Positions 13,322 through 16,320 of a stretch of 64,000 nucleotides of DNA are shown in pieces (position 1 is the first letter of the stretch; every line of letters begins with the position of its first letter). The notes beneath the pieces are model-generated. The model did not search any database. It saw only the letters and a list, made by a program, of their open reading frames with translations, and had not been told where the DNA came from. Made by a program: the position numbers and the translations under genes. Source of the DNA: Botryllus schlosseri (lineage: Eukaryota). Location: NCBI GenBank assembly GCA_051294905.1, contig CM119371.1:8310001-8374000 (forward strand). The letters run 5' to 3'.

Positions 13322-13903
13322 TCAAACATAAGTACAACAGTCATCACGCAATTCCACCTCGCCATCAAATTTAGTCGAGCCTCTTCTTATATTAGGTGTC
13401 GCATAACAGACATTACGAATATATTGCAACCCCTTCCGCTTGATGAGAAAAGGACACGCAGGATAAAACTTTGCATGCTCGAACCAGGGATCATCGCACG
13501 GCAACCAATTTTGAAACAGCCCTCCGCACGAGAAACACTTTAAATGATCCTTATAGCCCAAATAGAACAATCCGCAGTCTGCGAGCTCGGCTCCGGAGGT
13601 ATTTATATTATCCGGCCATCGCATGAATGTGCTTAGTCTACGAGCATACCGTGTCATGTTATAGAAAACTGGATCATTCAGCGGGGAGACAGTTACATCT
13701 CTATGCTTCGCATAGCATTCATAAATCTTTTCCCCTCTGTTATTTATCATAGCTTGGTACTGTTCAATGGGACCCATCCGAGTTTCATCTTCGCTTATTT
13801 CTATGCTACTTGTGGTACCGGTGCAAGCGCAGTTGAATGTAGCGTAATTTGTAGGATCCATACTACGCTTAGGTAGCGAATCGCTTTGGTCAATGTTCGA
13901 CAT
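13322..13903 (-). CDS. Inhibitor-of-apoptosis-like protein with a single BIR domain, no RING
   Basis: RLSTFMRWP...ELADCGLFYLGYKDHLKCFSCGGLFQNWLPCDDPWFEHAKFYPACPFL fits the BIR consensus with C-x2-C-x16-H-x6-C zinc ligands. Confidence 0.95.
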   Translation of the reverse strand: MSNIDQSDSLPKRSMDPTNYATFNCACTGTTSSIEISEDETRMGPIEQYQAMINNRGEKIYECYAKHRDVTVSPLNDPVFYNMTRYARRLSTFMRWPDNINTSGAELADCGLFYLGYKDHLKCFSCGGLFQNWLPCDDPWFEHAKFYPACPFLIKRKGLQYIRNVCYATPNIRRGSTKFDGEVELRDDCCTYV

Positions 13904-13940
13904 TGCTATCCGAATTGATATACTCTCATGATCAGTATGC

Positions 13941-13946
13941 TTTATA
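13941..13946 (-). promoter_or_regulatory. Candidate TATA box of the IAP gene
   Basis: TATAAA on the minus strand ~38 bp upstream of the ATG at 13903. Confidence 0.4.
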
Positions 13947-14365
13947 CAGATATTGAGCTATGCACCGTTGAAATATGTGCTTGGTACCGATCGAATGATA
14001 GGTCCCCTAGGTCGTATCACGGAAAATTAGAACGTCGACTGCTCACAGAAAAAGGCACGTAGCTCATATCCGTTCCTGGTACGTGTTATCAATAATTAGA
14101 ATGTTAGTAAGAATGCCACGAGTACAATCACGAGGTGATGATTAATACCTAAAAATGATTTACTTAACGACATCTTGATGCGGATTATTAATTTTAAAAA
14201 ATTAAACTATAGTGTATCTGAAATTAGTTTTACTTTACTGAGATTAGTTTTACTTTTGAACTAACTTATCTGTCGATACATTCATTTAATTACGATTCCG
14301 AGAAGTCGGATCGATTCCCGTAATATAACGATTCAGTGTGAACCTTATGTCTTATACTTTAGCTG

Positions 14366-14503
14366 ACACTTACTCAGTCTCATTGAAATAGCATTGTATA
14401 GTGTACGAGTTCATTTATTTCGAAAAAGAGTATAATATATCAATGATATCATTGTGCGTCATTGCATCGATTCACTTGCTGAAATCCTCCAGATTGATGT
14501 TTC
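14366..14503. repeat. ~140-bp direct repeat copy 2
   Basis: TACTCAGTCTCATTGAAATAGCATTGTATAGTGTA identical to copy 1, remainder diverged; AATAAA on the minus strand. Confidence 0.8.
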
Positions 14504-14681
14504 GATGTCGCTTCACGAGTTCCATTCTTGCATCCACAAGCAGCTATGCAAATCCACAGCTTAGATAACTAGGACTCTTGTATGTCATTAACATTATAGA
14601 CAGTCATTCGACGATATCCAACTGGCATTGATGCTTTCGATACAGCGCAGTATGTATAACGTCACGCTGATCAATTCAATT

Positions 14682-14960
14682 TCAACAATGGGACCCGCGC
14701 ACAATTATATGGCTGGATTTTCGCTGAATATTGACGACACCCACAAATCGAAAGATCTCTTTTTCCTGCACATCTATGATGCAATTATCCTTCCAATGAC
14801 TACGAATAACTTGAGATTCCGCAGGATTAATATCCGAATCAAATAATACGAGCGTATCTTTTCCAGCTTTCAAAACTTGCACTGACGCGTCCGCTCTATG
14901 TCGCAACACTACAATATGTGGCCATACAAAACGATGTATAGTTATTTTTTGTAGTACCAT
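14682..14960 (-). CDS. Conserved 92-aa protein of unknown function (homologue at 29209-29484)
   Basis: About 53/92 identical residues by manual alignment with the 91-aa ORF in the nested element; same start and stop positions. Confidence 0.85.
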   Translation of the reverse strand: MVLQKITIHRFVWPHIVVLRHRADASVQVLKAGKDTLVLFDSDINPAESQVIRSHWKDNCIIDVQEKEIFRFVGVVNIQRKSSHIIVRGSHC

Positions 14961-15478
14961 CCCTACGACTTATTTCAGATCGCAGTTTACTGAGTAGAGC
15001 TTAATACTAATACCTGCATAATTTTTTGCATGTCTAGAATAAGGCTAATTAAATCGATAGTAAAACGCCAGTGGCGACTAATAACGTTATAATGTAAGCT
15101 GCGGCGGTGCTACTATAATGTTAGGAGCTATTAAAGCCGAATACGCTGAAGTATAGCATAGATTTTGCATATAAAATGTATACACAAATTTCCTGTTAAG
15201 GGTAGGCTCTGCGAAGCTGCTTATGCCTCGATGATCATAGTACTTATGAGCTATTGGATAGCGCATATACAATGTATCATATAGAACTTCGTCACTTTCG
15301 GATAGTACATATACCCCTGGAATAGAACTTAGACGCTATAAAGATCGATGTTCGCCTACGAATTCTCGCTTTACTCATGTCGTATGCTCGATAAATTGTA
15401 AGTTGCGGCGAGCAACTCATTTTTAAAGTCCCTAAGACGCTATTGAAATGAACTCTGACTCGCTATTATCCTCAAACC

Positions 15479-16320
15479 ATGGAATTATCACGAGCATCAC
15501 CTTCGCTCACTGAAGAAAAGGATGAAATTACATCCGGAGCATATTCCTTGGCGAGGAATTATATCATGTACGAACTCGACGGCTCATGCGTTAAGGCAAA
15601 TACGAAAGCAGAGAGAACCTTACGGCGAGTTGGGGATGAAATGTTTGAGCGACACCGAACTATCGTAAACGCGCTCTCCAAACGTCTTCGCTATAGTGAT
15701 GTAGAAGTCAATGAAAAATATGAAGAATATTCACCCGACGAGCGAATGTTCCTGATGATAGCTGATGGAATTTTCAAAGATGCCCAAGAAAATTGGGGCA
15801 GGATTGTCTCCCTTTTTGTGGTCGCTAGCATTCTTGCTCGGAATAAGGAGGATGAACATCGCGGTGATCATATAGAAGGTATCATACAGACAGTTGGGAA
15901 TTACATTGGTAGTAGAAGACGAAAGTGGATAGCGCAAAACGGAGGATGGGTAAGCGATTTTACAAGCCTTACTAAGGATTTAGGAATTATTATCTATAGC
16001 TCGAGGTACTACGATCCCCAGAACCCTTATCATCCCTCGATAGGGAACCTTAGATTCCACCTTATAATTTTGTTCTCAACTTTTCCCACAAAGCACTGTA
16101 ATTTACTTTCCAAGCGCAGCGAACTTCGAATTACCTAACAAGTAGGCTACGCTAACTTTCTGTAAGATTTGGAAGGCTAACATTTTTATTATTGTTTCAG
16201 GACAGTTTTGTAGGATATTTCGATAACACAACATTCGGTAACAATAAAGTTTGGAAGAGTCTCATGTTTGCTGGAATTGGACTGATGTCTATTGCAATGG
16301 CATTAACACGACAGCGATAA
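15479..16320 (+). CDS. Bcl-2 family protein, 2 exons (15479-15949, 16201-16320), 196 aa with C-terminal membrane anchor
   Basis: BH3 LRRVGDEM, BH1 NWGRIVSLF, BH2 WIAQNGGW|DSFVGYF joined across a GTAAGC...CTAAC...TTTCAG phase-0 intron; exon 2 ends in LMFAGIGLMSIAMALTRQR. Confidence 0.93.

Follow-up and report, generated by a model that had tools for sequence, protein, structure and literature searches.

Inhibitor-of-apoptosis and Bcl-2 genes as candidate anti-cell-death cargo of a Polinton/Maverick element in Botryllus schlosseri

Although Polintons are regarded as viruses, there is little evidence that in animals they lead an infectious life and manipulate their hosts. Cell-death genes as cargo have been described in two kinds of mobile element. 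Adintoviruses encode homologues of Bcl2 and of inhibitor of apoptosis (IAP) proteins (Starrett et al. 2021, PMC8502044), and in the text of Supplementary Fig. S2 of that paper IAP labels are placed next to the maps of mussel and pearl oyster, and Bcl2 labels next to those of fish/lancelet and nematode/sea urchin. In planarians, the giant Gypsy elements named 'Burro' are described as combining BIR and BCL2-like domains (Arkhipova and Yushenova 2019, PMC6431247). Here we describe a Polinton/Maverick copy that carries one gene of each kind, located in a stretch of 64,000 nucleotides from Botryllus schlosseri (assembly GCA_051294905.1, contig CM119371.1, positions 8,310,001 to 8,374,000 of the forward strand), which we call the window. 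This type of cargo is already known. We did not find in print both genes together with a third in one Polinton, a retained intron, the replacement of the DNA polymerase gene (PolB) by cargo, or mass amplification on capsid-less derivatives, and a literature search found no paper combining 'death domain' and 'polinton'.

The two genes are a BIR-domain gene on the reverse strand (13322..13903) and a Bcl-2 gene on the forward strand (15479..16320). Both are real, and the interval 13322..16320, to which they had been assigned by inspection of the letters and their open reading frames (ORFs) alone (hereafter the sequence-only reading), bounds them exactly. As that reading described, they are divergent, inside terminal inverted repeats (TIRs) and next to a virion module; a small ORF, ORF92, lies between them. 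The element spans 12176-38964 of the window and has 517-bp TIRs. Its left TIR (12176..12692, forward strand, terminus AGTAGTG) is common to sister copies and, in a comparison of the window with itself, matches the right TIR (38443..38964, reverse strand) in inverted orientation at 97.9% identity. A 6-bp target-site duplication (TSD), CATGGA, stands on the left at 12170..12175 and is perfectly duplicated on the right at 38965..38970. TIRs, 6-bp TSDs and an rve integrase are the signature of Polintons/Mavericks.

The element had been taken to be about 13 kb long. This does not hold for its present span in the window, but it does hold (about 13.35 kb) once a nested insertion of 13.4 kb is removed. 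In sister copies, which were sought in the same 495-Mb genome, position 22911 is joined straight to 36349 and the nested element is absent, so that 12176-22911 and 36349-38964 are the two parts of a single element split by an insertion. The same gene arrangement recurs at 98–99% identity at other chromosomal sites, and chance is excluded as the source of the IAP/Bcl-2 arrangement inside the TIRs. Taking the predicted proteins and their setting together, we consider it likely that this is an endogenous virus-like element whose accessory genes would hold off host cell death during replication or integration. The label 'Polinton-like virus' given in the sequence-only reading has to be dropped, as an rve integrase is present and the main form of the family carries a protein-primed PolB of about 1290 amino acids.

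The IAP gene encodes 193 amino acids with one BIR domain (Pfam BIR, E 2.9e-18, 66.6 bits against a cut-off of 22.9), and the match covers 69 of the 70 profile positions. Its best sequence matches in the PDB are BIR2 and BIR3 of NAIP, BIR3 of cIAP1 and BIR3 of XIAP, with ML-IAP also among the matches. BIR2/3-type domains score E 1e-21 to 1e-25, and lower-ranked chains, which we take to be BIR1 domains, score E 1e-7 to 1e-13. Pfam gave a BIR match only, with no RING domain found in the 193 residues, and the ORF downstream (ORF180) has no Cys-rich motif. A word-indexed protein search returned a single match, 96% identical and unnamed. In 22 of the 24 IAP loci fetched the BIR ORF is intact, and the zinc-site pattern Cys-X2-Cys...His...Cys was likewise found in 22 of 24. 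The C-terminus, CCTYV (13322-13336), is conserved across three diverged Polinton families, with GCTYV in one, and resembles what we take to be a class I PDZ-binding motif.

The distribution of the two genes was followed through the major capsid protein (MCP). A genome search with the MCP brought up 274 first-look candidates, of which 99 are scored matches; 41 loci are at least 93% identical, and further families lie at about 82%, 70% and 35%. The IAP gene is linked, on the expected side and strand, to 39 of the 41 family loci. Bcl-2 is linked to only 10 of the 41, and all ten near-identical Bcl-2 copies are MCP-linked. The expectation that sister copies carry these genes is borne out, although in the window's Polinton family Bcl-2 is confined to a minority of copies.

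The ratio of non-synonymous to synonymous substitution rates (dN/dS, by pairwise Nei-Gojobori estimates) for the IAP is 0.17 among 16 family copies (dS 0.11), 0.13 against the family at 78% identity (dS 1.1; more distant pairs are saturated) and 0.155 in eight of the ten Bcl-2-bearing elements, which lack PolB. BIR genes also accompany more distant Polinton families, at 78%, 57/55%, 42% and 38% identity. Judged by these comparisons, the IAP has long belonged to the regular gene set of this Polinton clade. Its BIR protein probably acts as a death inhibitor.

Other BIR-bearing loci were also seen. IAP copies 93–96% identical to that of the window form two inverted pairs, 10–12 kb apart, on other contigs and with no linked capsid gene, which suggests long-TIR derivatives carrying the IAP in their arms. 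In addition, dozens of long, apparently intronless frames, many of 555–583 amino acids, have a BIR 36–39% identical to that of the element IAP. Some of them occur as inverted pairs, and they could represent either a further mobile family or a host family that has expanded.

The Bcl-2 gene was identified from an ORF at 15479-16138 on the forward strand, which matches Pfam Bcl-2 over 100 of 100 profile positions (E 1.2e-20, 74.4 bits, cut-off 31.4). Exon 1 (15479..15949) encodes a BH3-like LRRVGDE, BH1 with NWGR and the start of BH2 (..GGW). An intron of 251 nucleotides with GT..AG ends (15950..16200) follows directly after the GGW codons, and exon 2 (16201..16320, with the stop ending at 16320) encodes, in conceptual translation, the rest of BH2, DSFVGYF, a hydrophobic tail anchor and then basic residues. 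An intron within BH2 after the Trp codon is at the canonical position for the Bcl-2 family. The GT..AG intron is kept in all 28 Bcl-2 copies examined, where it measures 58–263 nucleotides. Exon 2 is intact in 27 of the 28 aligned copies, and 26 are fully intact; the two defective copies have a 5-nucleotide deletion in exon 2 and a missing first ATG, respectively.

The sequence-only reading had proposed RNA-seq as a check, and this found the spliced joint 15948->16200, with GT..AG ends, in two reads with different starts from one bulk RNA-seq run (X24, about 6% of it read) and in one contig of run X3, at low depth. Reads placed at 95% identity may derive from sister copies, and the joint shows that the Bcl-2 intron is spliced in some copy at least 95% identical. 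The library type behind the contigs of runs X1 and X3 is uncertain and intergenic parts are covered as well, so that these contigs by themselves do not prove transcription. No reads of a further RNA run, X21, mapped on the stretch.

Among PDB sequences, exon 1 matches Mcl-1 (E 2e-10), BCL2L10 (2.4e-10), A1 (2.2e-7), Bcl-2 (4.7e-7) and Bax (5.8e-7). Mcl-1, BCL2L10 and A1 outrank Bax, the top ones by about three orders of E-value, and Mcl-1 has in common with the element protein the BH3-region LRRVGD and the BH1 NWGRIV. A HMMER scan gave 262 relatives, for which four names were obtained from 20 representatives looked up; the top-ranking one is an ascidian 'bcl-2-like protein 2' (50% identity), and a lancelet (amphioxus) cluster named 'anti-apoptotic protein NR13-like' is 33% identical. 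The closest relatives with a solved structure or a name are of pro-survival types. We count this in favour of the pro-survival subclass, and we lean, somewhat less firmly than for the IAP, towards a tail-anchored, Mcl-1/NR13-like protein that promotes survival. A weak Pfam match to BALF1 (E 0.0012) is below the cut-off, and a word-indexed protein search with exon 1 gave no match. When the genome was searched with the ascidian protein, no locus was closer to it than the element copies (best 52%) and no host progenitor gene was found.

Comparison with PolB-bearing sisters reveals how the Bcl-2 gene is placed in the element. Homology to the sisters runs over 12741-14132 and is found again from 16309, and contigs of runs X1 and X3 diverge from the window at the same two points (14132 and 16309). 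Between them, a 2.2-kb cassette of ORF92 and Bcl-2 (14132..16309) replaces 5.35 kb of the main form, which hold a 317-aa ORF (ORF317) and a PolB frame of 1294 amino acids. The 1294-aa frame had no Pfam, PHROGs or PDB sequence match; however, 27 of its 30 nearest named Atlas clusters are PF03175 (protein-primed PolB) and three are PF00136, and Exo I/II and polymerase A, B and C motifs can be seen by eye in the translation. At least 22 sister copies have the polymerase gene. The family itself therefore has a protein-primed PolB, and the window copy keeps only a 3' remnant of it, the last 74 codons or so (16309..16531, forward strand), collinear with the end of the 1294-aa frame in the sisters.

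The ten PolB-less copies lie at ten different chromosomal sites with equal spacing, so the sub-lineage spread after the substitution. As read from these alignments, the loss of PolB is a recent substitution within a true Polinton family, PolB is presumably supplied by autonomous relatives, and the window copy is probably a polymerase-less, helper-dependent derivative rather than an autonomous virus. A direct repeat of 85% identity (12748-12881 and 14363-14498) places a copy of the 3' end of ORF180 and the region downstream of it in the Bcl-2 cassette, and was probably left behind by the recombination from which the PolB-less variant with Bcl-2 arose.

A second Polinton family in this genome, with a capsid (443-aa form) 70% identical to that of the window and found at 12 loci, is autonomous and joins the two genes. 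One such element, on another contig, has 17.8 kb between TIRs of 260 bp. Immediately within one TIR begins its Bcl-2 gene, which matches Pfam Bcl-2 at E 4.7e-21 and shares 74% identity with exon 1 of the window copy; the opposite end holds a death-domain ORF, a homologue of ORF180 and a BIR gene, and an intact PolB frame of 1314 amino acids lies in between. The death-domain-only ORF (L074:1258-1542, reverse strand, just inside the TIR) encodes 94 amino acids (Pfam Death, E 6.1e-11). The stretch of TIR and Bcl-2 stands beside 12 of the 12 capsid loci of this family, the death-domain ORF beside 11, and a BIR gene beside at least eight among the best 150 matches listed. The death-domain ORF has 120 genome matches, mostly intact, and also occurs in pairs on the arms of long-TIR elements; it was not found in the window's element. 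The pairing of IAP and Bcl-2 is a regular feature of one autonomous lineage here, and with the death domain the set is threefold. The sequence-only reading had doubted that this pairing is standard in Polintons. That doubt does not apply to the second family. In the text of PMC8502044 a pairing in one element is not stated.

Most Bcl-2 copies in the genome lie outside both settings. A search with exon 1 gave 150 scored copies of 416 candidates, ten at 92–100% and 140 at 78–85% identity, and a stop codon occurs in six of the 150. Many of the 140 form inverted pairs 3–13 kb apart. Five such places were fetched. Their arms are 1.7–7.3 kb long and 99.7–99.9% identical within four of the elements (95% in one). 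Bcl-2 is present in every arm, and ORF92-like matches were found in three of the five. The ends of two long-TIR elements were read and have AGTAGT termini and 6-bp TSDs, GATATC and TACATG. No other ORF of at least 90 amino acids was found in the one long-TIR arm examined. On these features, the Bcl-2-bearing long-TIR elements belong, with the element nested in the window, among the non-autonomous derivatives of Polintons. First-look candidates in the whole genome number 416–576 for Bcl-2, 627 for BIR and 161 for the death domain. A wider reading, which we put forward tentatively and hold to be somewhat short of an even chance, is that Polinton lineages have exchanged by recombination the modules of a cell-death toolkit, namely a BIR-only IAP, a death-domain-only protein and an Mcl-1-like Bcl-2, and that these modules have been amplified into hundreds of germline copies, mostly intact and under selection, carried by capsid-less long-TIR derivatives.

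ORF92 (14682..14960, reverse strand) is a small conserved ORF, the divergent partner of Bcl-2 and a hallmark of the long-TIR derivatives. A genome search with it gave 150 scored matches of 1193 first-look candidates, mostly free of stops and often in inverted pairs; diverged intact copies lie at 29209-29484 of the window and at L027:3312-3599. It has no Pfam or PHROGs match. A structural model is a beta-sandwich with a predicted local distance difference test (pLDDT) score of 79.1, and the best hit of a VIA fold search (Z 4.6, to alpha-crystallin/CS-type beta-sandwiches) is not significant.

The nested element (22912..36348) is a non-autonomous long-TIR element of 13.4 kb that starts with AGTAGTT, ends with ..ACTACT (termini AGTAGT..ACTACT) and is flanked by the TSD TTCGCT. 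Self-comparison shows its arms, 22912-29157 and 30136-36348, to be inverted and 99.5% identical; the whole is an almost perfect palindrome, with 6.2-kb arms around a centre of 978 bp. The ORF92-like gene at 29209-29484 (reverse strand) occupies this centre, and 32-nucleotide tandem repeats are found close to both ends of the element (22947-23325). Beyond it lies the right internal part of the Polinton (36349..38442), which is mostly non-coding (no ORF longer than 73 amino acids) and collinear with sister copies after 22911.

The virion module begins directly beyond Bcl-2 and comprises an ATPase, an integrase, two paralogous ORFs, a capsid gene and a protease-like ORF, all on the forward strand. 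The packaging ATPase (16535..17152) is of the A32/FtsK type (Pfam Pox_A32, E 8.6e-9), and the retroviral-type integrase (17914..18912) has a C-terminal chromodomain (Pfam rve, E 2.1e-14; Chromo, E 2.4e-8). The two paralogous ORFs (19072..20600; 269 and 240 amino acids) are intact, have no Pfam or PHROGs match and are, by position only, candidates for a minor capsid or penton protein. The MCP (20999..22276, 425 amino acids) is probably of the double jelly-roll type; its Pfam match to DJR-like_dom (E 0.0095) is below the cut-off, and Atlas assigns it to eukaryotic clusters with a score of 0.98, with PF21738 in 24–30% of the cluster members. The last ORF (22273..22728, 151 amino acids) has no Pfam or PHROGs match and is a candidate adenain-like cysteine protease by a His...Gln...Cys pattern seen by eye, which we take to be that of such proteases. 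The capsid, ATPase and integrase ORFs are all intact in the window copy, which is consistent with a virus-like life. The infectious cycle proposed in the sequence-only reading keeps this support and that of the position of the cargo within the TIRs, but the copy with both genes is polymerase-less and is weaker evidence for an autonomous cycle.

On the other side of the IAP lies its conserved downstream partner gene, ORF180 (12823..13365, reverse strand; probable start 13302), which is intact in sister copies. Its product is beta-rich with an N/G/Q-rich tail, and a homologue in the second Polinton family is 46% identical. It has no Pfam or PHROGs match, and its model (pLDDT 63.6) gave no significant fold match; Foldseek searches with the ORF180 and ORF92 models reached E 0.13–0.22 at best, which is not significant. 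Reads of run X24 pile up at 12851-13152 to a depth of about 58. However, 216 of the 221 reads mapped there fit only partly and continue into unlike sequence at 13057, which suggests that a relative of the 3' half of ORF180 is expressed at another genomic site. The TIR has a tRNA-like look, and ARAGORN found no tRNA in it. Elsewhere in the window, dispersed repeats of 75–84% identity were noted at 46664-48005 and 54599-56040, and at 9864-10533 and 57989-59023.

Several observations weigh against a virus-like element whose cargo holds off cell death. The element IAP has a single BIR and no RING, unlike the tested viral IAPs. The MCP and protease assignments come from sub-threshold or by-eye evidence, and the RNA support is thin, with an X24 depth of about one or less over IAP and Bcl-2. 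The cassette takes the place of PolB in the window copy and nine sisters, so that the both-gene form is polymerase-less, and most Bcl-2 copies ride on capsid-less elements, so that any benefit need not depend on virion production. Bax is itself among the matches of Bcl-2 exon 1, and sequence cannot separate pro-survival from pro-death members. Finally, Bcl-2 has a dN/dS of 0.69 within the ten PolB-less copies (dS 0.037), with 12 variable codons that are synonymous-only against 37 that are non-synonymous, which fits relaxed constraint in this sub-lineage. Part of these differences form a block common to the other Bcl-2 lineage, which suggests gene conversion or patchwise exchange.

The last of these points bear on the alternative that survives best, which is that the Bcl-2 homologue is pro-death, a Bax/Bak-like effector for lysis or release, or is a neutral passenger that was captured with flanking DNA and multiplied by hitch-hiking on highly successful non-autonomous elements. 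The Bax match, the ratio of 0.69, the many copies on capsid-less long-TIR elements and the retained intron, which shows capture from genomic DNA, speak for it. However, between lineages the gene is constrained. With the two defective copies left out of the 28 aligned, dN/dS is 0.30 for the window's group against the others (dS 0.31) and 0.27 for the long-intron against the short-intron group, and against the second family it is 0.27 (dS 0.50). The dN/dS check proposed in the sequence-only reading was thus passed by the IAP (0.13–0.17) and by Bcl-2 between lineages (about 0.3), but not by Bcl-2 within the ten copies. Frame, splice sites and tail anchor are preserved in 26 of 28 copies, pro-survival members rank first among the relatives with a solved structure or a name, and the autonomous family has kept Bcl-2 in 12 of 12 copies. 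We regard a pro-death or passenger role as unlikely.

Less probable still is that the cargo mainly serves the host, that is, that cell-death or immune regulators were expanded by host selection with Polinton derivatives as the vehicle of duplication. The very large numbers of candidate copies, the purifying selection on the cargo genes and the presence of transcripts, though low, would agree with such an expansion. However, the genes have fixed positions relative to the TIRs and move with TSD-flanked elements, selection within an element lineage explains the same dN/dS values, and arms are 99.7–99.9% identical within an element and 15–20% different between elements, which is the pattern of element lineages and not of a host gene family. 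That ordinary host genes merely lie beside a transposon, or that the assembly holds a false palindrome, is refuted by TSDs and sister copies, since, for all that a 6.2-kb inverted repeat at 99.5% identity resembles a fold-back artefact and the Bcl-2 intron is host-like, both genes lie between TIRs that an exact 6-bp TSD flanks, a separate 6-bp TSD borders the palindromic block, which is absent from sisters exactly at 22911/36349, and the same gene order stands at ten loci.

We therefore return to an endogenous virus-like element with cargo directed against host cell death, for which the following course of events can be proposed. An adintovirus-like Polinton would have integrated through its rve integrase, leaving the 6-bp TSD, and recombination with a Bcl-2-bearing relative would have swapped the PolB region for the cassette of ORF92 and Bcl-2. 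The resulting sub-lineage kept spreading, presumably on PolB given in trans by autonomous relatives, and a related non-autonomous long-TIR element would later have inserted into the window's Polinton and split it. In the host cell, the BIR protein might bind caspases or death activators of the IAP-binding motif (IBM) type, and the Bcl-2 protein, in the mitochondrial outer membrane, could hold BH3 or Bax-like effectors. The death-domain-only protein of the sister family may be a decoy in death-domain signalling or assemblies. The joint effect would be to delay the host cell death that is triggered by element replication or integration. Of this account, the identity of the genes, their place in the element, their distribution among copies, the selection on them and the splicing are observed, whereas the action against cell death, the need for a helper and an infectious phase are inferred.

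An IAP under strong purifying selection and three cell-death modules in an autonomous family are genes that a replicating virus would need and a cut-and-paste transposon would not. The locus also shows cargo on the move, with a Bcl-2 cassette with a host-type intron found beside a TIR, in capsid-less arms and in place of a polymerase. For genome annotation, hundreds of Bcl-2, BIR and death-domain loci here lie on TSD-flanked elements, and such loci should be checked before they are counted as host gene-family expansion. If the tentative view of an exchanged and amplified toolkit is correct, much of what would be annotated in invertebrate genomes of this kind as a lineage-specific 'expansion' of apoptosis genes is virus cargo, and the capsid-less derivatives may live as satellite-like parasites on an autonomous Polinton and, in blocking death, earn their keep or shield infected cells.

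The closest described systems are the adintoviruses and animal Polintons, which share with this family the TIRs, the protein-primed PolB, the rve integrase, the A32/FtsK ATPase and, probably, the double jelly-roll capsid (PMC8502044). The elements reported here hold both genes in one element, with a death-domain gene added in one family; the layout of the Supplementary Fig. S2 text does not reveal if both stand together on any published map (PMC8502044). Differences lie also in the retained Bcl-2 intron and, in the window copy, in the Bcl-2 gene that stands in place of PolB. The IAPs of baculoviruses, entomopoxviruses and iridoviruses likewise have a BIR domain with a Cys/His zinc site, whereas the element IAP has a single BIR and no RING E3 in its 193 amino acids and ends in CCTYV. 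Viral Bcl-2 homologues (adenovirus E1B-19K, herpesvirus BHRF1 and BALF1, poxvirus Bcl-2-like proteins) are similar in their C-terminal membrane anchor and in being carried by a double-stranded DNA virus or virus-like element. However, the element Bcl-2 is much closer to cellular Bcl-2 (50% identity to the ascidian protein), retains the BH2 intron and is present in hundreds of germline copies. The Burro elements are also mobile elements that unite BIR and Bcl-2-like modules (PMC6431247). In Burro, an LTR (long terminal repeat) retroelement, the modules are domains of one giant polyprotein, whereas here a DNA element carries them as separate genes (PMC6431247).

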